The notes under the pieces were generated by a model. The model was not told the origin of the DNA. It ran no database searches and worked only from the letters and a program-made list of their open reading frames with translations. Positions 13,895 through 46,633 of a DNA stretch of 51,557 bases are shown piece by piece. Both the position numbers and the translations under genes were made by a program. The first letter of the stretch is position 1. Every line of letters starts with the position of its first letter. The stretch lies in the IMG/VR virus record IMGVR_UViG_3300032225_001565, positions 1 to 51,557 of that record; one strand, given 5' to 3'. The stretch comes from a virus. Lineage: Duplodnaviria; Caudoviricetes.

Positions 13895-14160
13895 CAGTCG
13901 AACTCCACCACGATTGCGACCTCGCTGCCGTCGCGGTTGATCTCCACCGACGTGGCAGACATATCCGCCAGGAGCGCCCACAGGTCTTCGTCGCTCATCG
14001 GGGCCATGCCCTCGACGAACCGGACGGCGACCTCGTGCGGCGATTCGCCGACAAGGATCGAAATGTCCGCGTCCGATGACCGGCATCGCGACCGGAGGAA
14101 CTCTTTGAGTTCGTAGATGCCGCCCTCGGCGGCGTGGACGGCGTCCAGCAGGAAGCTCAC
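13894..14160 (-). CDS. Hypothetical protein (88 aa)
   Basis: GTGA overlap with the csrA stop; GGAGG RBS. Confidence 0.65.
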   Translation of the reverse strand: MSFLLDAVHAAEGGIYELKEFLRSRCRSSDADISILVGESPHEVAVRFVEGMAPMSDEDLWALLADMSATSVEINRDGSEVAIVVEFD

Positions 14161-14327
14161 TTGGTCGCCTCCCGCGGCTTCTGGAGCAGTTCCTCGCGGG
14201 CGATCAGCACCTCGGGCGGCGCCTTGATGGCGAGCCGCACCTGGCCGTCGAACACCTTCGTGACCATGACCTCGATGTCGCGGCCGATCTGAACCTTCTG
14301 CCCGCGGCGGCGGGTGATGACCAGCAT
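14157..14327 (-). CDS. csrA: Carbon storage regulator CsrA/RsmA RNA-binding protein (56 aa; absent from the supplied ORF track)
   Basis: Manual translation MLVITRRRGQKVQIGRDIEVMVTKVFDGQVRLAIKAPPEVLIAREELLQKPREATK fits the CsrA consensus (MLxLTR..G..I.IG.DI.V.V....G.QV.L.I.AP..V.I.REE) with Arg44 retained. Confidence 0.95.
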   Translation of the reverse strand: MLVITRRRGQKVQIGRDIEVMVTKVFDGQVRLAIKAPPEVLIAREELLQKPREATK

Positions 14328-14328
14328 G

Positions 14329-14344
14329 GCTGACTCCTTTCAGC
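14329..14344 (-). promoter_or_regulatory. CsrA-type hairpin over the csrA RBS
   Basis: GCTGA-AAGGAG-TCAGC: 5-bp stem with ANGGAN hexaloop, 1 nt before the ATG. Confidence 0.7.
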
Positions 14345-14362
14345 GTTGTGTTTGGTGGTAGC

Positions 14363-14836
14363 CTATCCAGCCGCCTGGATTGAAGCAAGGTAGGTTTCGC
14401 AGGCTTTCTTGACCGCCGGCCGGGGGTGTTCCTTGGCCGCCCAGGTCAGGTAGGCCATGCCCCGGCTCGAGCGGGACACGACGCCCAGCGTCTGCCCGTC
14501 GAAGCGACCGCCGCGCAGCATGAAGTCGGCCCCCTCGGCCGGCGGCGCCAGGTGGCCCTTCACGACCGGCACCCACTGGCCTGTGCCGCAGAAGCAGCAC
14601 TCTAGCCGCCACTGCCCCCGATCCTCGTCGAGGATGTCGTGGCACTCGGCCCGACAGTTCTGGTCAAGGCAGGCCACAGTGCCATCCAGGCGACCGAGGG
14701 GCGGGTTGGCCTCCGCTGGCAACGCCAGCGGAGGAGTGTCATGGGCCTCTGACTGGGCTCCGGCCGACTCAGTCTTAGCCTTCCGGCCCCGTTTCTTGGT
14801 CGGTTCTTGTGGGGACGTGTCGAATAAAAGGCTCAC
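14363..14836 (-). CDS. Hypothetical protein with Zn finger and C-terminal G-x-F-x-G...YLxW motif
   Basis: C..C...CCFC; GGRFDGQTL..YLTWA. Confidence 0.7.
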   Translation of the reverse strand: MSLLFDTSPQEPTKKRGRKAKTESAGAQSEAHDTPPLALPAEANPPLGRLDGTVACLDQNCRAECHDILDEDRGQWRLECCFCGTGQWVPVVKGHLAPPAEGADFMLRGGRFDGQTLGVVSRSSRGMAYLTWAAKEHPRPAVKKACETYLASIQAAG

Positions 14837-16476
14837 AGTGGCAACTCCATCGAATAGGGTTCATCGGACTCGCAGACAATCAGCCGCTCCTTGGCCCTCG
14901 TGACGCCGACGTATTCGATCCGGCACTCCTCGTCATGGACACGGGGGTCAAGCTCCCGCTCGCGCTCCACCCTGGCGGCCGTCTCGGTGGAGAGGATCAC
15001 GTCCTGGGCCTCCATTCCCTTGGCCCCGTGGATGGTCGATAGCCGCACGTTTGGCTTCGTCGCGATCTCAGGGCCGTGCCGTTTCGCGGCGGCGTACCAC
15101 TTGCCGCCCCCGTCCAGCAACCCTGACCATCGACCCTCTTTGATCATCTCCATCAGTTCCGGCGTGACGCCGCCCAGCGTCGTCATCTCGTCGGCCGACA
15201 GGAAGTCGATATCCTCCCGCCGGCCCTTCGTCCAAGCAGCCTTCTCGCCGTGGCGAAGCAGGACGGCCGCGTCGATGGTCTTTGTGGGCGTCAAATCGAT
15301 GGCCGCCGTCCAGGCAGCCCCAGAGATGCCCTGGCCGTGCTGGAGCCTCCAGTAGGCGTTGTAGGCCATCATGGCCTTGGTGTCCGATTTCTCGTTGATG
15401 TAGGCGTGCGGCACCTTCCGCGACTCAAGCATCGTGGCGAACTTTGCCAGTGAGTATTTGCACCTCGCCAGCACCAGCGTCGTTCGGCTGCCGTCCACTT
15501 GGCTGATCGCCCGCTCGATCGACGGCTCGTTGATCACCCTGCCTTCGTGGGCGGCCGGTGCGATCCCGCGCTCAAAGTAACCCTTTCTCATCCGCCGCAG
15601 GCATCGCTCGCCAAGCTCCATGACGGCGGCGGGACACCGCCAAGACTGCGGCATCGTCCGCTCCTTGTCGGCCTCCCACGACATAAAGTTGCGGTAGTCG
15701 GCACCGCCAAAGCCGAAGACCGACTGGAAAGGGTCTGCGGCCAGGTACGCCCACTTCACGCCGGGGGCGTAGGCCAGCCGGCGGCAGACGGCGTCCAGCA
15801 GCTTCGACGCATCCTGCGCCTCGTCGAAAATCCACGCCTGCACGCCCTCGGGCGTCGGCCCCTCCGGCTCGGTCATTTCTGGCCCGTCCAGCGTGAAGCG
15901 TATCCCAGCGTACCGGCCGAGGATGTCCACGAAGTCGGACTTGCCGTCCAGCCGCTTGGAGTCCTCGTATTTCCTCACGAAATACTTCACGGTGCCGTAG
16001 GCCGGCACCTCAATGCCCGCCATCGACTTCTCGCGGTGGACGGCCTCCAGCGGCTCGACGCGGTTCCTGGCGATGTCCCAGAGCGTCAGCGCCGCAGCGG
16101 CCTCGTCGTCCCCCACGCAGACCTTGTAGCCACTGTCCTCGACCTTCCGCCACGAGACGTTCACCCGGAGACGGTCGGCGATCCACTTAGACGCCTTGTC
16201 ATCGGACGCCAAAAGCTCGTCCCCTTTGATCTGGAGCATCTTGTGGCAAGTCGAATGGGCCGTCCTGAACCACCCAGTGCCTTCCAGAAGGCTCGGATGG
16301 CAGTCGAACGCCTCAGATGCCCTGTTGACCATCTCCTCCCTGGCGGCCTTCGTGAGGCTCGCAAAACCGATGGCCTGCGGGTCACGGCCGACCTCTGGCA
16401 GGACCGACTTCATGATGTTGAGCAGTTCGGTGGTTTTCCCCGTGCCTGCCCCTCCGATGAGCCTGGCTACCTTCAT
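14833..16476 (-). CDS. UvrD/Rep-like SF1 helicase
   Basis: GGAGTGKTT, DEAQD, DPFQSVFGF, QSWRCP, STIHGAKGMEA, YVGVTRAK. Confidence 0.93.
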   Translation of the reverse strand: MKVARLIGGAGTGKTTELLNIMKSVLPEVGRDPQAIGFASLTKAAREEMVNRASEAFDCHPSLLEGTGWFRTAHSTCHKMLQIKGDELLASDDKASKWIADRLRVNVSWRKVEDSGYKVCVGDDEAAAALTLWDIARNRVEPLEAVHREKSMAGIEVPAYGTVKYFVRKYEDSKRLDGKSDFVDILGRYAGIRFTLDGPEMTEPEGPTPEGVQAWIFDEAQDASKLLDAVCRRLAYAPGVKWAYLAADPFQSVFGFGGADYRNFMSWEADKERTMPQSWRCPAAVMELGERCLRRMRKGYFERGIAPAAHEGRVINEPSIERAISQVDGSRTTLVLARCKYSLAKFATMLESRKVPHAYINEKSDTKAMMAYNAYWRLQHGQGISGAAWTAAIDLTPTKTIDAAVLLRHGEKAAWTKGRREDIDFLSADEMTTLGGVTPELMEMIKEGRWSGLLDGGGKWYAAAKRHGPEIATKPNVRLSTIHGAKGMEAQDVILSTETAARVERERELDPRVHDEECRIEYVGVTRAKERLIVCESDEPYSMELPL

Positions 16477-16640
16477 TGGACCGCGTTTCCTTTCTTGGGG
16501 GTTTGTGGCCCGGTTTTCGGTCCACCCTAAGTCCTTGTTTTTCAACCACTTGCATCGCGTTGGACCGCAAACCCGCGTTCCCGCGCTCGTAATTGATTTC
16601 CGAATTTCAATTCCCCCCCTATGTAATAAGGGCGGGTTGG
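16477..16640. other. Putative replication origin
   Basis: AT-richer intergenic region after the primase gene; GGACCGC direct/inverted repeats flank TAAGTCCTTGTTTTTCAACCACTTG, which holds two inverted IHF-like sites. Confidence 0.45.
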
Positions 16641-18292
16641 CTTTCGGGATGGGCGATGGTTTCAAGATGGGTAATATGCGCCTGCGTCCAGACGACATAG
16701 CGGCGTCGGACGCCGACTTCCGTCCTGACCCGCTCGATGCGGAACTCTTTCTCGCCGGAGGCGGCCAGCATCCGCCGCTTGAGGGCCACCATCTCGCCCT
16801 CCAAGAGCCGCACCTTCCGGGTCTTCTGGATGTCCTCGAAGACCCGGTTCCATGAGAAGTAGAGTTCGTACTGCCCCTCGGCGTTTCGCACCCACGATGC
16901 CCTGCCTGACGGGTGCGGTGCCGAATCGTCCGACCCGGCCTCCGGCGTGGCCGTGCTGGAGAGGGCGTCTAGAAGCCAGCCCGCGACCTGAGCAAACCGC
17001 TGTTGCTCGGCCGGGGGCCATTCCTCCGTCTTCTCGTCCATGAGCTTGACCTTCAGCCCTCGCACCCGAGTGAACTGCTTTTCCCCCTCCTTCTTGAACG
17101 AGTAGCCGTTCCAGATTTTGGCCCACTCCTTGGGATTGGGGTCGGTCACGTCGGTCGTGCCGGTGGCCTCCAGAATCTTCCTGGCGACGGAGATAGGACT
17201 TGACCAGTCAGCGCTCGACAGGCTGACTTGGACGCAGTCGCTCTTGCCGTCGCTGTTGGCGACCACGGGGACGTGTAGCCGAAACTCCTTGGGGTCTGAG
17301 TGAACGACGGTCAGTTTCCACATCCCCGGAAACCACTCGGACCCGCGAAGCTCCAAACCGCTGGCGGCGTGGGCGTTCTGCTTCTTCGCCTTCTCGACCT
17401 TCTCGTCAGCGTCGGCATCGGTGCTCGCGATCTTTGTGGCCCCGGCGGCGCGGGCCTTCATGCCCCACCGAAGCTGGCCCATCCAGATGCTCTTCAGTTC
17501 GTTTTCCTCAAGCGGCGGGCTGCACTGCATCTTGTTCAAGGCCCGCATGACCATCAAGACGTTCTGCTGCTCGGCGGGGTCGTGTGGGTCGCGCATTCGC
17601 ATGACCTCCGACGAAATCCACGACACCATCGACGTGTGGCGTTCGCCCGTGCCGACGATCCGCTCGTAGATGGTGTTCTTCGTGATCGCCCCTTCCTCAC
17701 CCACATCGCCCTGGCAGGCCGCGATCACGGCCAAGACGAGTGCCTCGGGCATTGGCAGGGCTTCGACCTCGTCGGGGGAGCGGCCTTTGTCCCAGGTGTA
17801 GATGACGCCGCTGTGATGCCGGCTGGGCGGGATGATCGACTGGGTCTGCTTGCCACCGCCGCCGAATCGCACCTCCAGGCCGCCGATCTTTTTGACGCCC
17901 TTGGGGATGGCGATCAGCCGCTCGTCCAACAGCCAGAGCCGGTGGCCGCCGCGGTTCGACGAATAGCCCAGAGTCCTGGCATCGACGAGGCCGAACTTCT
18001 TGGCGGTCGCCAAGGATTTCTCGTCATCCCACTCCGTATCGACGATGCCGCTCGCCGCCCCCAGCGGAAGGCCGATGTTCCACGCCTCGCCGTTCTCAAA
18101 CCACGCCGCGATCGTCTCCTCGTCCTTAGTGGCGTGCGGCAGCCAGTCATGCTCGACGGGGTGCTTCCCCGGCGTGGCACAGCCGTGGCCGAGGTGGCAC
18201 ATGCACCGACCATCGACCATGCCGTAGTTCCGAACCATCGGCCAATCCAGTTCCGCCGCGTAGCGGGCGGCGGCCTTGAAGATGTCGCTCAT
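16619..18292 (-). CDS. Bifunctional primase-polymerase (Prim-Pol) with PriCT-like domain
   Basis: C.C...C..PGKHP, ATKD..TI..WF, NIG, D.E.D, RGGH, IPPS.H.SG..Y.W, GER...PPL...EL. Confidence 0.88.
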   Translation of the reverse strand: MSDIFKAAARYAAELDWPMVRNYGMVDGRCMCHLGHGCATPGKHPVEHDWLPHATKDEETIAAWFENGEAWNIGLPLGAASGIVDTEWDDEKSLATAKKFGLVDARTLGYSSNRGGHRLWLLDERLIAIPKGVKKIGGLEVRFGGGGKQTQSIIPPSRHHSGVIYTWDKGRSPDEVEALPMPEALVLAVIAACQGDVGEEGAITKNTIYERIVGTGERHTSMVSWISSEVMRMRDPHDPAEQQNVLMVMRALNKMQCSPPLEENELKSIWMGQLRWGMKARAAGATKIASTDADADEKVEKAKKQNAHAASGLELRGSEWFPGMWKLTVVHSDPKEFRLHVPVVANSDGKSDCVQVSLSSADWSSPISVARKILEATGTTDVTDPNPKEWAKIWNGYSFKKEGEKQFTRVRGLKVKLMDEKTEEWPPAEQQRFAQVAGWLLDALSSTATPEAGSDDSAPHPSGRASWVRNAEGQYELYFSWNRVFEDIQKTRKVRLLEGEMVALKRRMLAASGEKEFRIERVRTEVGVRRRYVVWTQAHITHLETIAHPESQPALIT

Positions 18293-18816
18293 GTTGTCCT
18301 CCGTGCTTGCCACTGAACCTTGTTTCCAGCTTCCTTCCACAAGCCCATCGACCGCGAGTTCGCAAGCGATCCGCAGTTGCCGTCGTGCGGCACGAAAAAC
18401 CGCAGGTCATAGTCGCCGCCGCCATCACCGTGGCCGATCATAAAGCGAGCAACGCTAGGATCGACGCCAAACCTGCCAGCACCGCAGACCCCAAGAGAAA
18501 CCTCCTCGTCCTTCTCGTGGTCATAAACGGAGCCGTACCCAACCTTGTATGCGAAGTGCCCCTCAAACTCTTCATCGCGAGAGTACGGCTTCACCTCGAC
18601 GTAGAGGTCGTGGTATCCGTTGCATTCAGAGTGGCTGCACGGGAACTTCAGGTAGAAGTCAGGCGTCCAGCCGTCGAAGTCGATCGGCTCGTATCGCCAC
18701 TCCCACCCAAGCAGGTCGAAGAACGCTGCCCACCTGGCCTAAAGCCGAGATCGGAACATCACGCCCGCATACTTCGTCGGGTGCGCCTTAATGGTGTACT
18801 GCACCGAAACCTCCAT
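18289..18816 (-). pseudogene. PD-(D/E)XK nuclease-like gene interrupted by in-frame TAG at 18739-18741
   Basis: KAHPT.Y.G..FRSRL*ARWAAFFD...W.YEP....W.PDF...VEVKP in one frame; the stop replaces the normally conserved Glu of FRSRLEARW. Confidence 0.75.
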
Positions 18817-18828
18817 GCTTCGTTGTGT

Positions 18829-18871
18829 AAGAAACCCTCCCCGGCCCCGCTGCTCGCGGGGGCCGGGGAGG
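18829..18871 (-). terminator. Putative intrinsic terminator
   Basis: About 15-bp GC stem (CCTCCCCGGCCCC..GGGGCCGGGGAGG) followed by GTTTCTT on the minus strand. Confidence 0.5.
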
Positions 18872-19004
18872 TCTAGTTCCGCCAGCCGGCATGGTGGGAA
18901 AGAGGCACCAGAGGCTCGGCCGACTTGCCGCGTTACTCGCCACCACGGCCTGGGCGACCGGCCCGCGAAGGTGCGGGTTTCGCGCCGCCGGCCCGGCGGC
19001 TGGA

Positions 19005-19790
19005 TCACTCGTCGTCCTGGCCGTCCTCGTCGAGCCGCTCGGCCGCCGCGGCACCCGCCGGGATCGCCGAGAACATCGCCGTCAGCGGCTCGGTGTAGAG
19101 CCGGCGGGCGATCTCACCCTGCTCCTCGGTGAGCATCCCCACGAGCCGCGGGACGATCATCGAGTACGGCTGGCCGGAACCACCCTTGGCCTTCTCGAGC
19201 TTCAGCCCGATCACGGCCTCGTGGAACAGGCACGGCAGCCGCATCCGAAACGGCCCCCACGACGCCAGCGAGCCGGGGCCGACCGTCACGAGCACCGGCC
19301 ACACATCGCCCTCGCGGAGGATCGCCAGGATGCGGCTCTCCTTGACCCGCTTCCCAGCCCCGCGGCCGGCACCGTAGCCGAACTCGGGCGACGCTGAGAG
19401 CGCCGTCCAGTCATAGCGACGGTCGCCGATCCGATACTTCTCGAGCGCCTTCGGGTCGATGCTGCCAAGGTCATCGCTGACCCGGTAGCCGACCAGCAGG
19501 TCGTTGCTGATCACCACCGGCCGCTGCTCGGTGGGGTCTTCGCTCGGCCACAAAGTGCCGCGCTTGGCCTCCCCGACCAGCAGGCCAACGATCTCATCGG
19601 CCGTCTCCTGATTCCCGTTCACGTCGAGCGTCCACTTCGTGGCGCCGCCCAGCGGGGTCTTCACCCGCACGAGGTCAGTCTCCCGCATCGCCCCGTCGCC
19701 CACGTTCTGGGCGATGATCTTCGCCAGACGCGAGTTGGGCGCGAACGCGGGGTAGTCGATCGTCCTCACAGTCGCAATCGCAGTTGTCAT
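19005..19790 (-). CDS. Putative ssDNA-binding/annealing protein
   Basis: Acidic C-terminal tail, RVK.P.GG..W motif, position in the replication module. Confidence 0.55.
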   Translation of the reverse strand: MTTAIATVRTIDYPAFAPNSRLAKIIAQNVGDGAMRETDLVRVKTPLGGATKWTLDVNGNQETADEIVGLLVGEAKRGTLWPSEDPTEQRPVVISNDLLVGYRVSDDLGSIDPKALEKYRIGDRRYDWTALSASPEFGYGAGRGAGKRVKESRILAILREGDVWPVLVTVGPGSLASWGPFRMRLPCLFHEAVIGLKLEKAKGGSGQPYSMIVPRLVGMLTEEQGEIARRLYTEPLTAMFSAIPAGAAAAERLDEDGQDDE

Positions 19791-19833
19791 GGGTGTTGTC
19801 CTTTCATGACGACTATCCGAACCAGGCACCACC

Positions 19834-20268
19834 TCAACGTGAGGTGACGTGCCGCAGAACCGGGCGAACGAACTCGCCCACCAAACCCTCGAACTCCGTC
19901 CCAGCCGAGTAGGGCTGGCGGGCATCCTTGCCCGCCGATTTCGCCCTCTCGGTCAACTCAGCTTTGAGCCGAGCCGTGTTCACCTGCGTGACCGCATCCA
20001 GCAGCCCCGCACGTCGGGCGGCCTCCATTACCGCCTCCTTTCGCGCCTCCGGCGCAGAGAACGAGTGACTCCACTCGATTCTCCAACTCCTCCCTGCGGC
20101 CTTGACTCCATCCAATCGGCCGTTCGTCATCTCCTTGATCGCGATGCCCTCGAGGTGAGCACGCTTTTCCTTGAGCGTGTCGATCTTGTCGTTCAACTCC
20201 TTGACCTGCGCGTCGATCTCGCTGATCTCAGCGAGTGCGCGTTGCAGCGTATCCGTCGATGATTGCAC
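19834..20268 (-). CDS. Coiled-coil hypothetical replication-module protein
   Basis: GTG start after AAGGAGG; N-terminal coiled coil, VN.A.LKA motif. Confidence 0.7.
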   Translation of the reverse strand: MQSSTDTLQRALAEISEIDAQVKELNDKIDTLKEKRAHLEGIAIKEMTNGRLDGVKAAGRSWRIEWSHSFSAPEARKEAVMEAARRAGLLDAVTQVNTARLKAELTERAKSAGKDARQPYSAGTEFEGLVGEFVRPVLRHVTSR

Positions 20269-21610: not shown

Positions 21611-21661
21611 CGCTGCCCTCTCCTTGGCGGCGGATGAACTTATCGGCAGCGTGTCTTCACG

Positions 21662-22234: not shown

Positions 22235-22312
22235 TTGATTCTCGATTTGCAGTGGAGGATAGGGGATTCGTATCCTTCACCGCCATGACCCGCAAGAAAG
22301 GAGTCTTCACTC

Positions 22313-22540
22313 ATGGCTGGTACGGATTGTCGCCTCGGAAAAACCATTGTTCAAGTCAAACTCACCAAAGAGCAGGTCAAAGCCCTGTTTTCGGCGGTCA
22401 ACACCGCCGGCAGGCTTTCCGCCGGCCGGATATGCCGCCACGACCGCGAGCAGGAGTGCGCCCTTCTCGCCGCCATCGACGCGCTTGAGCAGGCCAGCGG
22501 CTTGTGTCAGGCCGACGCGGACGAGTGGCTGCTCGACTAG
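22313..22540 (+). CDS. Hypothetical protein (75 aa)
   Basis: AAGGAG RBS in hairpin AAGA-AAGGAG-TCTT. Confidence 0.6.
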   Translation: MAGTDCRLGKTIVQVKLTKEQVKALFSAVNTAGRLSAGRICRHDREQECALLAAIDALEQASGLCQADADEWLLD

Positions 22541-22651: not shown

Positions 22652-23500
22652 ATGACACTTGAGGAACTGCTTGACGGGTACTACGTCCCCCTCTGCGGGG
22701 TGTCTGCGCGAACGGAGAAACTCTACCGCTACACGATCCGCGCCTTCGGCGAGCACTTGGGCAGGACGGCGACGGTGGCCGATCTTGAGGAGTTGACGGT
22801 CGCGCGGTTCTTGTCGGCCAGGCTGCGTGATAAGGCCGTCGCCACGGCCGCGAAGGATGCCACGCAGTGCCGCGCTCTCTGGGGGTTCGCAGCCCGCCGT
22901 GGCCTCACCGCCCAGTGGCCGCAGATTCGCCGCATCCGCGTGCCGGAGCGGGTGCCGCAGGCGTGGCTGACCGACGAGTTGCAGCGTCTGCTCGACGCCG
23001 CCAGCCAGCGGGAGGGGACGATTGCCGGCGTGCCGGCCCGCCTCTGGTGGCGGTCGATGATCCTCGCGTGCTACGAGGTCGGCGAGCGGTGCGCGGCCAT
23101 GCTGGCCGTCGAGTGGCGGGACTTGTCGCCAGACGGCATCCACCTGCGCGCCGAGACGAGGAAGGGGGCGACCCGCGACCTCTGGCGGCCGATCTCGCCG
23201 GAGTGCTACGCCGCCATCCAGGCGACGAGGACGAGCCGGATTCTGGTGTGGGAGTGGGATCGCTGCTACACCAGCTTGTGGGGTCACCTGGGGAAGATTT
23301 GCAAGGCCGCCGGCCTGCCGAACGACCGCTGGAGCAAGTTCCACCGCATTCGGAAGACGCACGCCTCCTACGCCGCCGCCGCGGGCCTCGATGCCCAGCG
23401 GCTGCTTGATCACGCCTCGCCGAAGACGACCAGGGCGTACCTCGACCCCCGGATCGTGAAGCCGCCGTCGGCGCCAGATGTTCTGCCGAAGGTGGGATGA
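22652..23500 (+). CDS. int: Tyrosine recombinase/integrase
   Basis: Catalytic R (GER), K (TRKG), H-x-x-R (FHRIRK), H (LDHAS), Y (TRAYL); SAM-like core-binding N-terminus. Confidence 0.9.
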   Translation: MTLEELLDGYYVPLCGVSARTEKLYRYTIRAFGEHLGRTATVADLEELTVARFLSARLRDKAVATAAKDATQCRALWGFAARRGLTAQWPQIRRIRVPERVPQAWLTDELQRLLDAASQREGTIAGVPARLWWRSMILACYEVGERCAAMLAVEWRDLSPDGIHLRAETRKGATRDLWRPISPECYAAIQATRTSRILVWEWDRCYTSLWGHLGKICKAAGLPNDRWSKFHRIRKTHASYAAAAGLDAQRLLDHASPKTTRAYLDPRIVKPPSAPDVLPKVG

Positions 23501-23503
23501 AGG

Positions 23504-24422: not shown

Positions 24423-24452
24423 GCCGGCTGCCTCGTTGTGTGGCAGAGTAGC

Positions 24453-24656
24453 CTACGAGATTGCCGCCTGACCGTCAACAAGCCGCAGTTTTGCCAGTTC
24501 TGCCGTCAACCGCTCGATCTCGTCGGCCGCCTGGACGAGTGCCTCGCGTTGCTGCCTCTGCGTCCGCTCGGCGTGGGCGAGCCGGTCGGCCAGGTCTGTC
24601 CCCATGTGATAGGAGGCCAGGAGCCGCAGGTGGTTGGTGAGTTCAAGGCCGGTCAT
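24453..24656 (-). CDS. Hypothetical protein (AADEIERL motif)
   Basis: Common small phage protein motif. Confidence 0.6.
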   Translation of the reverse strand: MTGLELTNHLRLLASYHMGTDLADRLAHAERTQRQQREALVQAADEIERLTAELAKLRLVDGQAAIS

Positions 24657-24683: not shown

Positions 24684-24971
24684 CTAGTCTACGGCAGGCA
24701 GCGTAGACACTGGCAAGTACGCCGCCGCGTCGATCTCCTCCACCGCACCGCTGGAAAGCAGTTGCGGCAGGAGCGTGGCCGCAGGCTCCCAAGTCACGAA
24801 CTCGTCCTTCACGGCGAGCAGCAGCCGCCCAGCAGCGTCGCGCGGGGCGACGGCGGCGGGATCGAAGCAGGTGATGATGCTGCCGTCGGCCTTTGGATGG
24901 CCCCACGCAGCATCCAGTTGCAGGCGAATGGATTCGTACAGCGCAACGTCTGATGTGCGATAGAACTTCAT
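24684..24971 (-). CDS. Hypothetical protein, possible fibre accessory
   Basis: ATGA overlap with the LamG gene stop. Confidence 0.7.
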   Translation of the reverse strand: MKFYRTSDVALYESIRLQLDAAWGHPKADGSIITCFDPAAVAPRDAAGRLLLAVKDEFVTWEPAATLLPQLLSSGAVEEIDAAAYLPVSTLPAVD

Positions 24972-27301: not shown

Positions 27302-27348
27302 TTGCACCTCCCTGTGCGTTGCGGGCCTCTAGGGCCACTCGTGGCGGG

Positions 27349-33389: not shown

Positions 33390-33393
33390 TTAG

Positions 33394-34533
33394 TTAGCCG
33401 ATGCCGCGGATTCCCAGATTCTTAAAGTCATACTCGTCGTAGATGCTGTATCGTTTAATGATGACCGGAGGGTCAACTGCTTGGGGGCCAAAACTTCTCC
33501 TGGGTGTACCATTCATGTTTAGCGGGATGGGCTGGGCGGATGGTGATTGGCTTGCGCCGCCATTTTCGTACTCAAAAACCTTGACCATCGCTCTCACCCT
33601 GTCTCCGGCATTTACTCCGTCAGGAAGCTGCGGCGGCTCAACGATCTTTCCGTCTCGGTGCTTGAGCGGCTGGCCGAATATATCTTTTGTGACGGCCGCG
33701 TTTGCCGGATTGAACGCGATCACATTAAATCCAGTCTGAGGAACCGCCACGTCCCAGCCAATGTCTGCGTCTACGACGATGCCTTTCTCGCCAGCACCTA
33801 CATTCTGGTCTTCAGTAATGCAGAGTCCCTTAACATGATTTCTTCGATACGCGAACTCATATGTCGCTATCCAACCTCGGTAAAGGCGGTCATTCCAAAA
33901 TTCAGCGACAGGCTCGCTTGAAATTCCTCGAAGCATTAGTGTGTGGCGCCGACAGGACAACGTCCCTATTTCAAAATCCACTTCATTTATCACACCAACA
34001 CGTTCTGCATTTGTTGTTGGGTCGCTTGACTCAAAGTGCTTGACAGAGATTGTTACCATCGGCTCGTACTTTGCTATTGGATCAAACCTATCACCGGCGG
34101 CGTTTCGAGGAACGACTGGGTTTCCATCAGGGTCTCCGCCCGGAAACATTGGCTGCCATGTGTAGACAGGAACCTCGATCAGCGAAGAACTGATCGACCA
34201 GTCTGCTGGACGCACGTCGGGCGGCTGCGATTTTGGGTCTTCGCCGGCGGAGCTTGGCGTGGACTGGTACTGGAACGTAACCAGATACACCATCCGGCTG
34301 TCGCCGTCGTATCGAAGATCGAACGACGTGCAGTAGGTGCCTAGGCTGACGGGGTGCTCGTCGCCGATACTGACACCGCACTCCTTCTGCGCGTTGACCG
34401 GCTGGCCCACGCCCTCCATCAATATCCGAAACACGCGGGTGGCCGTGTCGGCCAACTGCCCCTCGTTGCTGGAACGAGAGAACTGCGCGCCGGATGAAAT
34501 CTCAGATACTGCCTTGGCGGCCATCGCTATCAA
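33394..34533 (-). CDS. Tail tip/hub-like protein
   Basis: 379 aa downstream of the tape measure; IG..HP motif. Confidence 0.65.
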   Translation of the reverse strand: MIAMAAKAVSEISSGAQFSRSSNEGQLADTATRVFRILMEGVGQPVNAQKECGVSIGDEHPVSLGTYCTSFDLRYDGDSRMVYLVTFQYQSTPSSAGEDPKSQPPDVRPADWSISSSLIEVPVYTWQPMFPGGDPDGNPVVPRNAAGDRFDPIAKYEPMVTISVKHFESSDPTTNAERVGVINEVDFEIGTLSCRRHTLMLRGISSEPVAEFWNDRLYRGWIATYEFAYRRNHVKGLCITEDQNVGAGEKGIVVDADIGWDVAVPQTGFNVIAFNPANAAVTKDIFGQPLKHRDGKIVEPPQLPDGVNAGDRVRAMVKVFEYENGGASQSPSAQPIPLNMNGTPRRSFGPQAVDPPVIIKRYSIYDEYDFKNLGIRGIG

Positions 34534-39505: not shown

Positions 39506-39510
39506 GGGAT

Positions 39511-39762: not shown

Positions 39763-39773
39763 CTCCGCTCCTT

Positions 39774-40139: not shown

Positions 40140-40159
40140 CTATGCCTCCAGACGAGGCT

Positions 40160-40492: not shown

Positions 40493-40531
40493 CTGGTTGC
40501 GCCTCCTTGCGCCGTTGTCCCAACTAGTCGG

Positions 40532-40957: not shown

Positions 40958-40959
40958 GG

Positions 40960-41733
40960 TCAGGCTGCCTGGATTCTGTTGATTTCGCTGCGGATCGCAT
41001 CGGTCAGGATGCTGAGTGAGACACTCTTCGACGACAGGATGGCCCGTTCCATCGCGTGCGACGGTGGCATGGCCCCGTAGGTTTCGCCTGGGGCGATGGC
41101 TACTGGGCCAAAGTCGTGCGGGTAGCCGCTGCCTCGGCGGGCATCGCGCGTAGGCTCCTTGTAGCTGCTCATTATAAAGTAGAACCCACGGCCCATCCGC
41201 TCGAACTGCGTGTTGTCAAACGGGCGGCCCTGATTCGGCACGCGGTTGAATCTTCCGTTGATCTCCTGATGCACATTCAAGTAGGTGCGCCGGCCCTGCG
41301 TGCTGGGGCGGCGCGGGCCGGTGCCGAACTCATAGAGCCAGGCATGGTTGCCCGCCCCTTTGACCTCAACGTCCCACTCGTCGCCAGACTTTCCGCCGCC
41401 ACTGACGATGTGCCTGGGGCCGCCGATCGCCACGCCGACGCCGCGGGCGCGCTGCCCATTAATCCCGCGAATCTGAATGCTTTTGCGAAGGTTGCCCGTC
41501 ACGTCAGGCACGATCCGCTTGTAGTTCTGCATCACCTCTTTCATCGCCACCTTGCAGGCGGCGTTGAGCCGAGGCGTCGCGTCCTCGCCCACCTGCGTGG
41601 CGGCGCGGAGCAGAGCGTTGATCAGGTCTTCGACGCCATCCAGGCGGATGCGGATGAAGCCTTCCGTCGCCTCGCGGCCGGTCTGGCCGCTCGAGAGCGT
41701 GCGCGGCGTCGTGCCTTGAATGGGGACGGCCAT
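40960..41733 (-). CDS. HK97 gp10-like neck/tail protein
   Basis: L.G.E.L...L, P..TGNLRKSI, HA.L.EFGT, MP. Confidence 0.82.
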   Translation of the reverse strand: MAVPIQGTTPRTLSSGQTGREATEGFIRIRLDGVEDLINALLRAATQVGEDATPRLNAACKVAMKEVMQNYKRIVPDVTGNLRKSIQIRGINGQRARGVGVAIGGPRHIVSGGGKSGDEWDVEVKGAGNHAWLYEFGTGPRRPSTQGRRTYLNVHQEINGRFNRVPNQGRPFDNTQFERMGRGFYFIMSSYKEPTRDARRGSGYPHDFGPVAIAPGETYGAMPPSHAMERAILSSKSVSLSILTDAIRSEINRIQAA

Positions 41734-41734
41734 G

Positions 41735-42058
41735 CTAGGTCAACTCCCTCGCCAGTAGCTCGAGCGTCTGCCGGCCGGAGCGGTCTGTGACGCTGGCGAT
41801 CTCCATCGTCCGATTCCTCCAGATTATCCGGTGGGTGTGCGTCACGTCATTCCGATGGCGGATGCGAATCCGATGGGTCGCGACCACGTTGGCCTGCTGG
41901 GCCTGGAGAATATCCCGGCTTGATAAGCCCTCGACGCTGGCCCAGACGGTGGCGAGCGTCGTGTCCCAGTTGAGCGTCGTCTCGCCGGAGCGGCTGCGCA
42001 CCTCCGTCGGAGACTTGATCGTCACCCGCTCGCGCATGCTGCCGATGTCGATGGTCAC
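41735..42058 (-). CDS. Head closure (head-tail joining) protein
   Basis: G.MRERVTI, W......VWASV, THRIRIR; GTGA overlap. Confidence 0.88.
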   Translation of the reverse strand: MTIDIGSMRERVTIKSPTEVRSRSGETTLNWDTTLATVWASVEGLSSRDILQAQQANVVATHRIRIRHRNDVTHTHRIIWRNRTMEIASVTDRSGRQTLELLARELT

Positions 42059-42507
42059 GCGACCGTCCCCTCGCCGATGAGGATGATGTCGTAGGTCTGC
42101 CCGGCGCCGCCGGCGACAACGAGGTTGCCAGCGGCCATGCCAGTCGCGTCGGATGCCACGGCCAGGGCGGCACCGCCGGCTCGGACGTGGAACGTGCCGC
42201 CAAAGGCGGCGGCAGACGCCGGCGTGAACGTGAGTGTGGCCGTTGATGAGTTCTTGACGTACACGGCCTTCAGCGCGGTCATGGCGACCGTCCCGCGGTC
42301 GTCCGTCAGGCTCGAGGCATTGAGCGTCTCGCTCGCACCAGCCAGCGTCCTGGCGTCGCTCCACACCACCTGTGCCTGGTTGGCACCGGTGCCGTTCGAT
42401 AGCCCCAGCGAGTACGTCGCCGGCGTGGCCCGCAGAGTCTGCGAGATGTCGCCGCTCGAGGTTTCGTGGGCCAGAATGGAGAGCAGAATCTGGGCGTCAA
42501 GTGCCAT
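42055..42507 (-). CDS. Beta-rich virion protein, paralog A
   Basis: VWSD.RT, K..YV.N.S, GQ.Y.I shared with 42511..42999. Confidence 0.78.
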   Translation of the reverse strand: MALDAQILLSILAHETSSGDISQTLRATPATYSLGLSNGTGANQAQVVWSDARTLAGASETLNASSLTDDRGTVAMTALKAVYVKNSSTATLTFTPASAAAFGGTFHVRAGGAALAVASDATGMAAGNLVVAGGAGQTYDIILIGEGTVA

Positions 42508-42510
42508 CGG

Positions 42511-42999
42511 TCAGGTTCCCATAACGTAGATTTCGTAAGACTGCCCCGCGGTGCCGCCGATCCGCAGGATGCTGCCGCCGGCCGTCGTCCCGAAGCCGCT
42601 GCTATTCGGGCAGGACAGGAGCAGCGTGCCGGCCTCGCGGATCGGGTAGCCACGCAGCGTCAGCGCCCCCAGGTTGATCATCGGGGAGAAGTTCCACGAG
42701 GTCGTGTCCTGGCGGAAGACGCTGAACTGGCTGCCCGTCCAGCCGGCCGACAGGGCGATCTGGTGCTGGCTCGACAGGTTGCGGACGTAGAGCAGCTTCA
42801 CGGCGTCAACGCCGATGGTCGAGAAATCGACCTCGTCGAATCCAGAGGCTCCAAACGTCCGCTCGTCGCTCCAGACCTCGGTGCAGTCGCCCACGTCAAC
42901 GGTGAACTGCACCGTGTGGTCTTCGATCGCGCTCGTCAGGCCGCTCTTGGTGAGCAGCCGGGCAGAGACGCCGGCCTGCACCTGGGCCTGGACGGTCAT
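42511..42999 (-). CDS. Beta-rich virion protein, paralog B
   Basis: ATGA overlap; shares motifs with paralog A. Confidence 0.78.
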   Translation of the reverse strand: MTVQAQVQAGVSARLLTKSGLTSAIEDHTVQFTVDVGDCTEVWSDERTFGASGFDEVDFSTIGVDAVKLLYVRNLSSQHQIALSAGWTGSQFSVFRQDTTSWNFSPMINLGALTLRGYPIREAGTLLLSCPNSSGFGTTAGGSILRIGGTAGQSYEIYVMGT

Positions 43000-43646
43000 C
43001 GGTAGCCCCCCCAGCCGCTCGCCGCCATCAGCGTCTCGAACGTGTGTGGCACCGGGATCACCTGCGAGTAGGAGGCAAAAACCGGCTGGCGCATTTCGTA
43101 CCAGTGGGCCACCAAAAGCAGGGCGGCCTGCTTCAGGATCATCGGCACGGCCGCGCCGCTGGCCCCGTAGCCGGCCTGCCACTGCACCGTGACGCTGTTC
43201 TCGTCGCCTCGAACCGCCGGCCAGACGCCGTCATAGAGCGGGTAGACGCGGCCGGGGGTGATGTTCGAGTCCACTTGGAAGTGGCCGCTGGCCGAGAGTA
43301 GTGTTTGGTTGTTCCCGCCCTCGTCGCGGTAGGTGATCGTCACGGCCGCTGGCGCCATCGGCGGGCGGGGCAGAATCAGTTCCCAGAGCGGAAACACGTC
43401 GTAGCGGGCCTGCCAGGTCTGCGTGATCATGGAGATGTCGAGCACCTCCTCCATGTACTGTCGCGCGCATGTGATCAGGCCGGTGATGTAGGCGTCGTCG
43501 TCAGAGATGTCAACGCGGCACTGCGTCTTTGCGTCTGCGAGCGTCACCGGCTCGGCGGCCGGCTGCACCGAGCGGACGAGGCTGCGATACGGCGTGATCG
43601 ACGAGTCGGGGTGCTGCGGCGAGCCGTAGACGATCGTGACGCTCAT
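42996..43646 (-). CDS. Head-tail connector/adaptor (gp6-like)
   Basis: EPVTL.DAK..CRVD..DDD.YI..LI..AR, AGYG, VP..LKQA.LLLVAHWYE.R. Confidence 0.92.
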   Translation of the reverse strand: MSVTIVYGSPQHPDSSITPYRSLVRSVQPAAEPVTLADAKTQCRVDISDDDAYITGLITCARQYMEEVLDISMITQTWQARYDVFPLWELILPRPPMAPAAVTITYRDEGGNNQTLLSASGHFQVDSNITPGRVYPLYDGVWPAVRGDENSVTVQWQAGYGASGAAVPMILKQAALLLVAHWYEMRQPVFASYSQVIPVPHTFETLMAASGWGGYR

Positions 43647-43846
43647 TGGCCTTTCCTCTTCTTGACGGGCTGATTCACAACGGCTCGCTCAACGTCGGCG
43701 TCTGGGGCCACCGCCCGCTCGATGGCCTTCTCCTCGGCCGGCTCGACCATGCCGCGGGCGATCATCACGCGGGCCATGCCGTCGCCCCAGTCGAAGACCT
43801 GGCCGATGCGGTAGCCGTTGAACGCCTTGGTGACGCGAATCTTCAC
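43643..43846 (-). CDS. Small head-associated protein (67 aa)
   Basis: GTGA/ATGA overlaps; G.V.D....A..MI.RG..E and basic tail. Confidence 0.7.
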   Translation of the reverse strand: MKIRVTKAFNGYRIGQVFDWGDGMARVMIARGMVEPAEEKAIERAVAPDADVERAVVNQPVKKRKGQ

Positions 43847-44571
43847 TTGATGAACCCCCAGGCGCCCTCGGGCGGCGTGCGGTCGCTGTTCCAGAATTCG
43901 GTGCAGTGCTGCTGAACCTTCCCGCCGGAAGCCTCGCGGCTGGGCCAGGTGATCATCAGTTCGGCGTGGCCGACGCTGATCTGGGTGGCGATGCCCAGCT
44001 TGTTGCCGGCGGCGTGAAACGCCTTCCACATATGGATGTCCTCGTCAATGTGGCCGCCGCGGTAGTCGCCGCGCTCGCTGGCCTCGGCGATGAACCACGG
44101 CTTCGGCGTCTTCCGCAGGGCTTCAGTGCGGATGAATGTGCAGCCGAAGTGGGCCGTCTCGACCAGTTGGACGGGCTTCTGGAACCAGTCATTCTCCACG
44201 GTCGTCTTGTCCTCCGGCTTGACGCCGGGGAGGGCGAACATGACCGTGTTTGCCTCCCGCTTGGTCTGGAGCGGGGCGATGGCATCGACGCCGCTGAACA
44301 TCATCAGCGTCAGGAGGGCTTCGACAGTCTTGGCAGTGAAGACCGTGTCGTAGTCGAACGTGAGGATCACGTCGTGCTTATCAAGCACGTCTTCCATGCA
44401 GTTCTGGAGGCACTGACCCCAGAATGCGCCGGTGTACTTGATCGGCGAGATGCGATGCGGCGCAAGAGCCTGGGCGACGCAGAAGAAGTTATCAGTGAAG
44501 CCGAGGCGGGGGCAGCTCATCAGAGCCGCCACCTTGACCTCGGCCTCACAGTCGCCGACGCGGACGAGCAT
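43843..44571 (-). CDS. GT-A fold (GT2-like) glycosyltransferase inside the head operon
   Basis: D.ILTFDYD (DxD), HFGCTFIR..AL, PWF, EDI..W, G.K......VGH. Confidence 0.78.
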   Translation of the reverse strand: MLVRVGDCEAEVKVAALMSCPRLGFTDNFFCVAQALAPHRISPIKYTGAFWGQCLQNCMEDVLDKHDVILTFDYDTVFTAKTVEALLTLMMFSGVDAIAPLQTKREANTVMFALPGVKPEDKTTVENDWFQKPVQLVETAHFGCTFIRTEALRKTPKPWFIAEASERGDYRGGHIDEDIHMWKAFHAAGNKLGIATQISVGHAELMITWPSREASGGKVQQHCTEFWNSDRTPPEGAWGFIK

Positions 44572-44653
44572 TTGTGTCGCTCCTATTGGTTAGGAGCGGG
44601 CGCGCTTCCTTGCGCCTTTGCCGGCCGTCTTGGCCGTCCCGCTTGTTTCGGGA
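44572..44653 (-). promoter_or_regulatory. Four-hairpin leader with a CsrA-type loop and an RBS-sequestering stem
   Basis: TCCCG..CGGGA, CGGCC..GGCCG, GCGC-AAGGAA-GCGC, CGCTCCTA-ACCAA-TAGGAGCG. Confidence 0.65.
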
Positions 44654-45097
44654 CTAGCCACGCACCAAGGTCAAGACGTTCGCGTCGCTTGCCGAGGCGG
44701 GCGAGATTTCGGCACGAGCGAGCCGGCCGGTGATCGCCACGGTGGCCGAGGCACCAGGGGTGTACGACACCTTGAGGTATCGCTTACGAACCCGCGTGTC
44801 CACGTCAAACTTCACGACCGCGACGGTGCTCGTTCCGGCCACGCTGATGGCGGGGACTGTGAAACCGCCGGTGCCACCAGCAACCAGCGAAGTGACGTTG
44901 GCGTAGGACGAGTTGTCGTCCGACTCCTCAATCTTGAGCACGTTTGAGAACGTGGTCGAGGCGTTGCTGGAACGCAGCACCATCAGCGAGCAGTAGTCGT
45001 ATCCGATCGTATCGATGGTCAGCGTGGCCGTAGCCGTCGATCCGACGGCGGCGGTCGGAAGCTCGGCGACAACGCGATGGTTCTGTGTGTGAATCAT
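44654..45097 (-). CDS. Capsid decoration/cement-like protein
   Basis: Directly after the capsid gene; ID..GYD, EESDD, KRYLKV. Confidence 0.7.
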   Translation of the reverse strand: MIHTQNHRVVAELPTAAVGSTATATLTIDTIGYDYCSLMVLRSSNASTTFSNVLKIEESDDNSSYANVTSLVAGGTGGFTVPAISVAGTSTVAVVKFDVDTRVRKRYLKVSYTPGASATVAITGRLARAEISPASASDANVLTLVRG

Positions 45098-45125
45098 GTT
45101 GATTCGTGCTCCTGTTTAGTGATGA

Positions 45126-46460
45126 TTAGGCCGTCTTGAGAGCGACAACGGGGCCGACCTCGGAGGTGCTGCCGAGCGAGTGGTGGTTCACATCGAACCG
45201 CATCGTGCCCTGGAGCAGAAGCTGGTCAGTCGTGGCGTACACCTGATCGAACAGCCGCACCGAGAAGTCACGGCGACGGGCGTAGATGCTGGAGAGGGCC
45301 ATGTTGCCGAACAGCACCTTGATCTTGCCGCTGTCGGTGCCGAGGGTGCTGTTCATCACATGCACCATTCGCACCGGGTAGCCGAGGAAGGACTCGCCCG
45401 CAGCGCCGCCGACGTTCTCGACGGTGTTCCCGCCTGCCGCGTACTTGAGGCGGGCGATGCTCGAGGCATAGCCGGCAGGAGAGACGTACCAGGCCGCACC
45501 TTGGCGGGCATAGATCGGCAACTTGCCCATCACGTTCAGGAAGTCTTCGATGTCCAGCGTCTCGAAGCCGACGTTGCCAGCCAGAGCCGTCACGACCGAG
45601 GCCGTGTAGGCCGAGCCGCCGATCTTGTTGACGATGCCGTTGATCCCGCCGTAATCGGAAGTCCCGTCTCCGAGCCACCCACACTGGTCAATCTTGAGGG
45701 CCAGCGAGGTGCTGAACTCTTGAGCACAGGCGTCTGCCAGAGACACCACGCCAACGGTGTCATCGACCACCTCGCTGCTCATCCGGCAGCCCACGGCGAG
45801 CTTCTTCGCCACCAGGCTGACGTTGCCGTAGGTCGGCTCGCTCTCGGTCACGCTCGACCCCTCGCCGACGAAGTATGCCGTCGTTCCGGTGAGACGCTTG
45901 GGGATCACCATCGTGTCGCGGCTCATCGACACGTTCTCGGCCGCGCCGGGGAAGGTGCCGTAGGTTTCGACCAGCCGGATCACGCGGTTGGCGAACTCCT
46001 CCGGCACCAGAGCGCCGCCGGCGGTGTTCGTCCCTTCGTTCAGGGCGCGGGCCTCGACACCGTGCTCGCGGCACCAGCGAAGGTCGTTCTCGTTCCTGAA
46101 CACGGTGGCCTTGATCCACCGGCCGCAGCGGTAGGCGCTCTCGACGGCGTCGGGGCCGTCGTTGAACGCGCGGAGGGTCGTGTGGTGCGGGTTGATGGCC
46201 CGAATCTCGACCTTCTTCGTCTCCTCGACGGCCGGGGCCGGGGCCGGGGCGGCCTTCTCGACCACCGCACGGAGTTCCTGCTCCTTGGCGGCGAGACGGC
46301 CCTCGAACTCGAGGTCGGCCTTGACCGTGTCGGCCTCGTCGGAGAGCTTGCGGAGTTCCGCGGTCTGCTCCTCCGAACGCTCGGCCACGTCGGCCAGTTC
46401 GGTCATCCGAGCGGCGACGGCCGCGGCACGATCCTGAAGTCGCTTGAGGTTCGATGGCAT
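45126..46460 (-). CDS. Major capsid protein (HK97 fold, with delta domain)
   Basis: N-terminal coiled coil, GG.LVPEE, VGEG, KL....S.E, G.G, LGYPV, FGN. Confidence 0.95.
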   Translation of the reverse strand: MPSNLKRLQDRAAAVAARMTELADVAERSEEQTAELRKLSDEADTVKADLEFEGRLAAKEQELRAVVEKAAPAPAPAVEETKKVEIRAINPHHTTLRAFNDGPDAVESAYRCGRWIKATVFRNENDLRWCREHGVEARALNEGTNTAGGALVPEEFANRVIRLVETYGTFPGAAENVSMSRDTMVIPKRLTGTTAYFVGEGSSVTESEPTYGNVSLVAKKLAVGCRMSSEVVDDTVGVVSLADACAQEFSTSLALKIDQCGWLGDGTSDYGGINGIVNKIGGSAYTASVVTALAGNVGFETLDIEDFLNVMGKLPIYARQGAAWYVSPAGYASSIARLKYAAGGNTVENVGGAAGESFLGYPVRMVHVMNSTLGTDSGKIKVLFGNMALSSIYARRRDFSVRLFDQVYATTDQLLLQGTMRFDVNHHSLGSTSEVGPVVALKTA

Positions 46461-46633
46461 CTTGGCCTTGCTCCTGTTTGAGCCGGCCAAAACGCAAAAG
46501 CGCCGGCCGGCGGGTGTTTCCCGCTAGCGCGCCGCTGACGTGAATCCTCACGTCGCTCGTGCTGTCCCTCGCGATGTCCGTCGCGAGGCTTGTATCTACT
46601 TGTAGTGTAGGGGGGCGACTACTTGCCGTGCAA
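46461..46633 (-). promoter_or_regulatory. Capsid promoter and structured GGA-loop leader
   Basis: TTGCAC(46628-33)-N18-TACACT(46604-09); hairpins CCTCGCGA-CGGACA-TCGCGAGG and GACGTGA-GGAT-TCACGTC; SD CAGGAG. Confidence 0.6.

Follow-up and report, generated by a model that had tools for sequence, protein, structure and literature searches.

CsrA is a major post-transcriptional regulator of bacteria, and the copies carried by phages, by plasmids and by integrative and conjugative elements (ICEs) have so far been read as tools for reprogramming the host. The viral contig IMGVR_UViG_3300032225_001565 of IMG/VR (51,557 bases, analysed as one whole contig and called the window hereafter; 64% G+C, most genes on the minus strand) raises the question of whether a phage csrA can instead serve the phage's own messengers. 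It encodes a CsrA of 56 amino acids (aa), and hairpins that present GGA in their loops lie in the leaders of csrA itself and of virion genes. The core hairpins of this set, which are those of the csrA leader, of the gene g26942, of the tail gene g40160 and of the glycosyltransferase (GT) leader together with both capsid hairpins, are selected RNA structures. Judged by sequence, they are elements of the CsrA-target type, in which the stems drift and A-N-GGA-N or GGA is held constant in the loop. From these sites we infer CsrA binding, and we put at roughly 0.55 the probability that this phage family controls its own messengers through a small post-transcriptional circuit of the CsrA type.

Relatives were found in IMG/VR, where 146 contigs hold a relative of the major capsid protein; 80 of them (76-89% capsid identity) were kept, and the comparative leader counts are drawn from these. 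Ten family genomes were counted, and nine long relatives of the window, of which G001 is the nearest and near-identical, were compared by tblastn; relatives are not independent samples. Among GenBank phages there was no near-identical DNA, and the capsid relatives there reach at most 27% identity. A 9.9-kb contig binned in an "uncultured Planctomycetaceae" metagenome-assembled genome (MAG) carries the same capsid at 79%, and the host is presumed to be a planctomycete, one MAG contig being a lead and not proof. Gene starts come from a crude codon-bias caller, which also served for the control phages; the open reading frame (ORF) 33394-34533 was a manual addition.

A phage csrA and conserved GGA hairpins

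The 56-aa csrA that a sequence-only reading of this contig had proposed is borne out by the match of its product to Pfam PF02599 (E=1.1e-18; 67.4 bits with a cut-off of 27; residues 1-50 of the 53-position model), and the product also matches phrog_9500, "CsrA-like regulator." Residues 1-51 align without gaps to Escherichia coli CsrA (1Y00), Pseudomonas aeruginosa RsmA (1VPZ/7YR6) and RsmE (2JPP), with E values of 5e-9 to 3e-8. At the RNA-contact residues of CsrA, which we take to be L2, L4, R6, R7, V40, V42, R44 and I47 (E. coli numbering), the phage protein has L2, I4, R6, R7, V40, I42, R44 and L47 in the 1Y00/2JPP alignment. In 14 distinct family orthologues there is no variation at L2, at R6, in the VRL-IKAP block or at the Arg that aligns with CsrA R44, and position 7 holds either R or K. 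The gene lies in the replication module, between the helicase and primase genes and the DNA methyltransferase gene. It is present in 8 of the 10 long records, including all four with a CheckV completeness of at least 99%, and the two records that lack it are 73% and 54% complete; by gene content, csrA is a core gene of the phage family. Phage-borne csrA as such was already known, since 53 GenBank phage records, mostly of Pseudomonas phages, hold a copy with 44-54% identity to the window CsrA, annotated as carbon storage regulator or "Bci."

All 11 stem-loops listed by the sequence-only reading are present exactly as it had written them. Over both strands, the window has 246 ANGGAN sites, six of which form an exact hexaloop above a stem of at least 4 Watson-Crick bp, when ca. 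1.6 would be expected (background 0.65% over 103,062 positions; p=0.006; rank 2 among 256 patterns of the same shape). In the ribosome-binding site (RBS) zone, defined as 0-14 nucleotides (nt) upstream of the 83 called starts, such hairpins are formed by 4 of the 19 ANGGAN sites, those at csrA, g22313, g26942 and g40160. A cross-pairing null, in which each left flank is paired with every other site's right flank so that position-specific composition is kept, gives 0.58% (binomial p=4e-6). Hexaloop hairpins of any loop sequence number 11 in this zone, the four ANGGAN ones included. Across the ten family genomes, 39 of 201 RBS-zone ANGGAN sites form the hairpin (2-6 per genome), compared with 1 of 80 in five phages of 62-64% G+C (phiC31, L5, D3112, B3 and BcepMu), in which the absence of csrA was verified. 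A 104-kb sample of the presumed-host MAG gave 2 hexaloops at 358 ANGGAN sites genome-wide, 0.9 times the background. Because enrichment is lacking in the csrA-free phages, in csrA-bearing Pseudomonas phages (considered below) and in the host MAG, we regard the RBS hairpins as a property of this phage family.

Conservation of these hairpins was followed leader by leader. The csrA leader keeps a hexaloop hairpin of at least 4 bp in 19 of 21 contigs, window included, with the Shine-Dalgarno (SD) sequence in the loop (AAGGAG, AAGGAC or AAGGAT). Its stems are of three unrelated kinds, the first GCTGA/TCAGC or CTGA/TCAG, the second (A)ACGG/CCGT(T) and the third TCCGA/TCGGA. One of the two exceptions, L153, has only 3 bp; the other, G008, is taken up below. 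The hairpin is a candidate autoregulatory site. At g26942 the hairpin is kept in 9 of 9 relatives, with the loop AAGGAG in eight and an invariant stem that is lengthened to CGCAC/GTGCG in two; a conserved TACAAT box stands ca. 50 nt upstream. The 119-aa product of g26942 is an unknown viral protein for which a protein-cluster search met viral clusters without a name; the label XepA, borne by 23% of one of them, is no more than a lead. The hairpin of g40160 is found in 27 of 27 orthologous leaders despite diverging flanks, and two of these have compensatory stems, CACGC/GCGTG and TTAGGC/GCTTAA. The latter (in L079) contains a G-U pair, which can form on the sense strand alone, and G-U pairs there and in the hairpin at 18805 point to RNA on the sense strand rather than to a DNA site. 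As for the product of g40160 (110 aa; model with a predicted local distance difference test score, pLDDT, of 72), earlier labelled as tail tube, its position directly after the tail terminator gives the label weak support, and the fold matches, all to tube-family proteins, are weak (E=0.03-0.3); it is probably the tail tube protein. Each of the csrA, g26942 and g40160 leaders has a single conserved GGA. The site overlaps the SD at these three genes and at g22313, and does not at capsid hairpins A and B or at a further site at 19917.

The label GT of the sequence-only reading is supported by the predicted fold. The product of the gene matches nothing in Pfam or PHROG; its AlphaFold2 model (pLDDT 68; predicted template-modelling score, pTM, 0.72) found GT-A folds in Foldseek at E=7e-8 to 1e-5 (template-modelling score ca. 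0.5), namely STIV A197, the collagen-type protein glycosyltransferases LH3 (GT domain) and ColGalT1, mimivirus R699 and ppGalNAc-T2. As candidates for a DxD-type acidic motif, D73, D75 and the run D176-E177-D178 are invariant in the orthologue alignment. Given that the gene is the second after the capsid gene, the modelled enzyme may modify the virion by glycosylation.

The GT leader folds into four hairpins, H1 to H4, and is almost invariant across 74 relatives. In H4, CGCTCCT pairs with AGGAGCG and the real SD is locked. The loop of H3, which is not the SD, is ANGGAN in 72 of the 74, and both N positions vary (AAGGAT in 48, AAGGAC in 9, AAGGAG in 6, AAGGAA in 3, ATGGAG in 3, AGGGAA in 2 and ATGGAA in 1). 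In the remaining two, L045 and L051, the H3 loop is ACGAT and the neighbouring H2 carries AAGGAC or AGGGAC; not one of the 72 others has an ANGGAN hexaloop at H2. Since L045 and L051 are close relatives, the shift from H3 to H2 counts as one event, a natural experiment that argues for selection on the loop motif and not on its exact place. The fold is more stable than that of shuffles (minimum free energy, MFE, z=-3.1), and the GGA motifs, read from the sequence, are ca. 26 nt apart. An alternative fold, in which the H3 loop pairs with the anti-SD arm of H4 and frees the SD, was rated as less likely than a protein-binding site, since the motif of L045 and L051 sits in H2, where the pairing partner is not adjacent.

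The capsid leader provides the covariation. In an alignment of 41 distinct sequences, RNAalifold predicts 36 consensus pairs, 12 of them with compensatory change; 97% of the alignment cells are paired, and double-change cells number 79, whereas shuffles give 23.8 (0/500) and controls with slid partners give 5-18. Hairpin A (helix 1) covaries at 7 of 7 pairs; in 75 of 76 relatives its loop presents GGA, carried by 19 different stems, while hairpin B presents GAGGA(T/C)TC or another GGA, likewise in 75 of 76. The fold has an MFE z of -6.8. The two GGA loops are ca. 32 nt apart and lie ca. 75-100 nt upstream of the SD, near the putative 5' end. Stem covariation in relatives, to which the sequence-only reading had looked for confirmation, is found, among other places, at capsid hairpin A and, as three alternative stems, in the csrA leader, and not in the GT leader. 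Rfam had nothing at gathering score over the window and nothing at E<=1 over 44500-46700, which spans the GT and capsid leaders.

One hairpin missing from the earlier list belongs here. At 19917, inside the 3' end of ORF 19834-20268 and ca. 130 nt upstream of gene 19005-19790, a 7-bp stem carries an ANGGAN loop away from any SD. It is found in 8 of 10 family genomes, always with an ANGGAN loop, on the stem versions GGCGGGC, GGCTGGC/GCCAGCC, AGCCGGC/GCCGGCT and GCCGGC, and in G002-4, G006, G008 and G009 it stands 131-160 nt upstream of the orthologous ATG. SD-hexaloop hairpins specific to certain lineages, on other stems, occur at orthologues of g6919 (4 of 6), g10191 (3 of 7) and g16619 (3 of 8), gains that would be as expected of an evolving regulon.

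In the window, gene 6919-7209 has no hairpin around its AAGGAG. Its orthologues in G004, G005 and G009 have GCAC-AAGGAG-GTGC or GCGC-AAGGAG-GCGC at the SD, like those of g26942 and g40160.

A candidate phage circuit and its alternatives

A constant loop, drifting stems and one relocation together form the signature of a protein that reads the loop, with the motif of a CsrA/RsmE site, and a phage Csr circuit is the most economical model because the family carries a csrA whose own leader bears the same site. In this model the 56-aa CsrA would be made from its own promoter within the replication module. Its leader consists of little beyond the AAGGAG hexaloop hairpin, and CsrA bound to it would keep the ribosome off and so limit how much CsrA is made; hexaloops of like geometry at g26942 and at the probable tail tube gene would give repression by SD occlusion. 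CsrA dimers bridge sites 10-63 nt apart, and the GGA spacings of both the GT leader and the capsid leader fall within this range. In the GT leader, with its GGA hexaloop ca. 26 nt upstream of the stem-locked RBS, one dimer could hold both sites (dual-site repression), and in the capsid leader the two 5'-proximal GGA loops, far from the RBS, would suit control of messenger stability and not of initiation. The sequences themselves establish the protein family and the hairpin structures with their conservation and covariation; we infer that CsrA binds, which way each effect goes and where the promoters lie. The host may take part as well: the presumed-host MAG has four CsrA matches and each of 41 genomes in its family holds 1-7, and these host paralogues may bind the same phage leader sites. 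Stated in full, as a virus-owned, autoregulated Csr circuit over capsid, glycosyltransferase, tail tube, g26942 and csrA whose hairpins are gained, lost and relocated, the proposal seems to us evenly poised between right and wrong.

All 41 genomes of the presumed-host family exceed the Pfam CsrA cut-off, usually with 3-5 matches each, which is an unusually large set of paralogues.

Several results weigh against the circuit. The loop is AAGGAG in three of the four RBS hairpins, and since this is a perfect ribosome-binding site, simple display would explain them; G008 has no hairpin of at least 4 bp before its csrA. Three csrA-bearing Pseudomonas phages (phi297, YMC11/07/P54 and PA8) have RBS-zone hairpins at 0 of 46 sites and no genome-wide enrichment (1.1-1.9 times the background). 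The genome-wide statistic is not specific, in that the family's 3.8-6.5 times the background is approached by the csrA-free D3112 (5 of 197 sites, 3.6 times) and B3 (4 of 206, 3.1 times), so we rely on the RBS-zone count and on conservation. With a lax definition, GGA in any loop of 4-8 nt on a stem of at least 5 bp, there is no enrichment at all (rank 19 of 64 trinucleotides). The stems of the GT leader are invariant, with compensatory change at 0 of 20 pairs, so its fold is argued from conservation and energy alone. A sigma-70 scan of 44500-46700 with the E. coli consensus gave no promoters. Finally, the link between csrA and the hairpins is that of one evolutionary lineage, which offers no csrA-free member as a contrast.

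The AAGGAG loops at csrA, g40160 and most g26942 orthologues, being ideal SD sequences, lead to the strongest competitor, in which the hairpins are RNA elements independent of CsrA that display the SD or a standby site to the 30S subunit, the leaders set stability or processing, and csrA acts on the host only. The Pseudomonas phages tell in its favour, as their csrA evidently needs no cis-regulon, and so does the GT leader, where the upstream GGA loop beside a sequestered SD could serve as a standby site; the hypotheses on phage CsrA published in PMC8450108 and PMC7546807 aim at host targets too. We nevertheless hold this explanation to be possible but rather unlikely. The non-SD sites fix only A plus GGA, or GGA, and the preceding base varies (A/G/T in H3, A/C/T/G in hairpin A), which weakens pairing with the 16S anti-SD and makes no difference to the CsrA motif. 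In the capsid leader, hairpins A and B are too far upstream of the SD for an obvious standby reading, and the hairpin with the SD in its loop stands on csrA's own messenger in 19 of 21 contigs. Nor are the hairpins a general habit of translation, because they number 1 of 80 at ribosome-binding sites of the control phages and 2 of 358 genome-wide in the host-MAG sample.

That the motifs work in DNA, as operators or protein sites made of short inverted repeats (GCGC-N6-GCGC), is suggested by the near-invariance of the GCGC-N6-GCGC and GCAC-N6-GTGC stems (25 of 27 and 9 of 9), by the GT leader, conserved in sequence without covariation, and by the position of several sites near putative promoters. 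We think it highly unlikely, given that stems vary with pairing kept (csrA has three, capsid hairpin A has 19 and the 19917 hairpin has four), which a protein reading the arms would not tolerate, that the conserved part is an asymmetric loop, that the G-U pairs function on the sense strand only, and that all sites are on the coding strand, directly upstream of start codons. Least credible of all is chance together with SD composition, that is, GGA hairpins picked post hoc from a G+C-rich genome. The unenriched lax count, the small genome-wide numbers (6 against ca. 1.6) and the fate of part of the original list would fit it: the sequence-only reading spoke of a genome-wide set, which overstates the case, as the core sites are conserved and 5 of its 11 sites are at chance level or unconserved beyond the nearest relative. 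Against it stand p=4e-6 in the RBS zone under a null that keeps composition, conservation in 27/27, 9/9, 72/74, 75/76 and 19/21 though flanks diverge, the 79 compensatory cells against 23.8 in shuffles (0/500), and the controls (1/80 and 0/46). Chance is contradicted by the comparative data at the core sites and stands only for the sites at 7205, 11023 and 1654. A CsrA-type circuit remains the reading that we prefer.

Other hairpins and genome context

The sites outside the core fared unevenly. The hairpin at the GTG start of the nuclease-like gene, a weak member with one G-U pair, is kept only in G001 (loop AGGGAG) and is absent from the G003 and G004 orthologues. The one at the SD of the 75-aa gene 22313-22540 (g22313), upstream of the integrase gene, is one of the four RBS-zone hexaloops, but its AAGA/TCTT stem is weak and the gene occurs only in the near-identical G001, with an identical leader. 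The proposed loops at 7205-17 and 11023-37 turned out to be pentaloops that orthologues do not keep. The loop at 1654-67, a GGAT tetraloop, belongs to positions 1-4300, for which tblastn gave no match in the nine long relatives; all three are at chance level.

The nuclease-like gene (18289-18804, minus strand) has an in-frame TAG at 18739-18741, where three relatives have Glu in a conserved FRSRLEARWAAFFD; it is either a broken gene or an assembly variant. Its protein is 97.6% identical in G001 and 72% in G003/G004. Just upstream of its hairpin, at ca. 18836-18871 on the minus strand, what looks like an intrinsic terminator, a long stem-loop of G+C with GTTTCTT after it, is shared with G001, G003 and G004.

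Boxes of the form TTG-N17/18-TA(G/C)(A/G)(C/G)T(A/G), often TAGGCTAC, are found on the minus strand before csrA and the capsid leader (Table 1) and before two small genes (24449-24478 and 24685-24714), four sites in all, and relatives conserve them. As a class they are candidate promoters that escape the E. coli consensus scan, and the promoters named in this text are putative, being read from conservation only. A sponge RNA of the CsrB/RsmZ type was considered and rejected: no Rfam family reached gathering score in the window, and the leaders hold just 2-3 GGA motifs. The GGA-containing repeats at 100-430, a second candidate for a sponge RNA, fold no better than shuffles (z=+0.96) and were rejected too.

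By its PHROG and Pfam matches, the window has a temperate, siphovirus-like layout. Besides the integrase, the matches include two helicases, a primase, a DNA methyltransferase, a deoxynucleoside monophosphate (dNMP) kinase and an exonuclease among the replication and DNA genes, and in the virion block a prohead protease (S78), the major capsid protein, a head-tail adaptor, a head closure protein, Neck1, a tail terminator and a tail assembly chaperone; the 1316-aa ORF after the chaperone was taken for the tape measure. A tRNA scan of the window gave no genes. Positions 1-4400 are a block of small plus-strand genes with no match in the nine long relatives (tblastn, 1-4300), with a 51-nt tandem repeat (1-153) and at least 10 copies of CCCGA(C/G)CGTGG(A/C)AACC; a 79-nt intergenic module with a long G+C hairpin is duplicated at 695-773 and 1185-1263.

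Table 1. Positions of the genes, leaders and hairpins discussed, in window coordinates
Feature	Positions	Strand	Basis or remark
csrA, 56 aa, canonical CsrA/RsmA family	14157-14327	-	Pfam PF02599, phrog_9500, structure-sequence alignments
csrA leader hairpin GCTGA-AAGGAG-TCAGC, SD in hexaloop	14329-14344	-	19/21 contigs; 1 nt before ATG
Putative promoter before csrA, TTGCTT-N17-TAGGCT	14360-14388	-	TTG-N17-TAGGCT(AC) conserved in relatives
Hairpin CGAAGC-ATGGAG-GTTTCG at nuclease-like gene	18805-18822	-	
Hairpin GGCGGGC-AAGGAT-GCCCGCC, not SD	19917-19936	-	
Hairpin AAGA-AAGGAG-TCTT at SD of 22313-22540	22294-22307	+	
Integrase gene	22652-23500	+	PHROG/Pfam matches
Hairpin GCAC-AGGGAG-GTGC at SD of g26942	27304-27317	-	9/9 relatives
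Hairpin GCGC-AAGGAG-GCGC at SD of g40160	40499-40512	-	27/27 orthologous leaders
GT gene (242 aa, predicted GT-A fold) in head module	43843-44571	-	AlphaFold2 and Foldseek
GT leader, 82 nt, four hairpins	44572-44653	-	74 relatives
GT-leader H4, CGCTCCTA-ACCAA-TAGGAGCG, sequesters SD	44578-44598	-	
GT-leader H3, GGA loop, GGCGC-AAGGAA-GCGC	44602-44616	-	
GT-leader H2	44622-44636	-	
GT-leader H1	44637-44653	-	
Major capsid protein gene	45126-46460	-	tblastn to annotated major capsid proteins, 23-27% identity
Capsid gene leader, ca. 150 nt	46461-46633	-	Alignment of 41 distinct sequences
Capsid-leader SD CAGGAGCA	ca. 46470	-	Two further conserved helices also in leader
Capsid hairpin B, GACGTGA-GGAT-TCACGTC	46537-46554	-	
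Capsid hairpin A, CCTCGCGA-CGGACA-TCGCGAGG	46567-46588	-	
Promoter-like TTGCAC-N18-TACACT of capsid leader	46604-46633	-	Conserved TTGCAC-N17/18-TAnnnT box

Comparison with known Csr systems

A core csrA together with GGA hairpins on the leaders of csrA and of virion genes points to control of the phage's own late synthesis and of its stoichiometry. The set on which this reading can be followed is small and defined, with five short leaders and one 56-aa protein. Two of the leaders, those of the GT and capsid genes, hold cis-regulatory RNA motifs without a match in Rfam, each with dozens of natural variants, and they come from phages of uncultured, probably planctomycete hosts, where phage gene regulation is barely known.

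In Gammaproteobacteria, RsmE bound to hcnA (solved complex 2JPP) and CsrA recognize the target consensus (A/U)CANGGANG(U/A). The phage sites resemble those leaders in the ANGGAN hexaloop closed by C-G at g26942, g40160, H3, 18805 and 19917, in the second GGA 26-32 nt away in two leaders and in the protein itself, which aligns without gaps; they differ in that the proposed targets are the virus's own structural and regulatory messengers, in a presumed planctomycete. E. coli csrA is autoregulated by CsrA, which binds several sites in its own leader. The phage likewise has a CsrA-type site over the SD of its csrA, and this site is kept, with covarying stems, in 19/21, but its leader, of ca. 25 nt from the putative start, is shorter and has one hairpin. 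CsrA also activates flhDC by binding twice near the 5' end of its long leader, which protects it from RNase E. The capsid leader is similar, with two GGA loops near its putative 5' end and ca. 75-100 nt from the SD, although the direction of its regulation is a guess.

Plasmid RsmQ and the ICE-borne CsrT are further CsrA homologues of mobile elements. For Bci, the CsrA homologue of a P. aeruginosa prophage, effects on quorum sensing, motility and biofilm have been proposed (PMC7546807), and a survey of phage RsmA/CsrA in GenBank and IMG/VR proposed repression of CRISPR-Cas in the host (PMC8450108). As in those cases, a mobile element carries a canonical CsrA; unlike them, where the proposals just cited concern host targets, the family of the window has conserved cis sites on phage messengers. 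Literature searches gave no report of a phage-internal CsrA regulon; the supplements of PMC7546807 and PMC8450108 may list csrA genes of the same family. What is already known is phage csrA itself, and what is new, as far as those searches go, is the conserved set of cis sites on phage messengers.

Phages also have translational operators of their own, such as the replicase hairpin bound by the MS2 coat protein and the targets of T4 RegA and Mu Com. Those proteins are unrelated to CsrA and each has its own specific operator, but the circuit proposed here would share their logic, with a small phage protein acting at an RBS hairpin and setting the dose of phage proteins.

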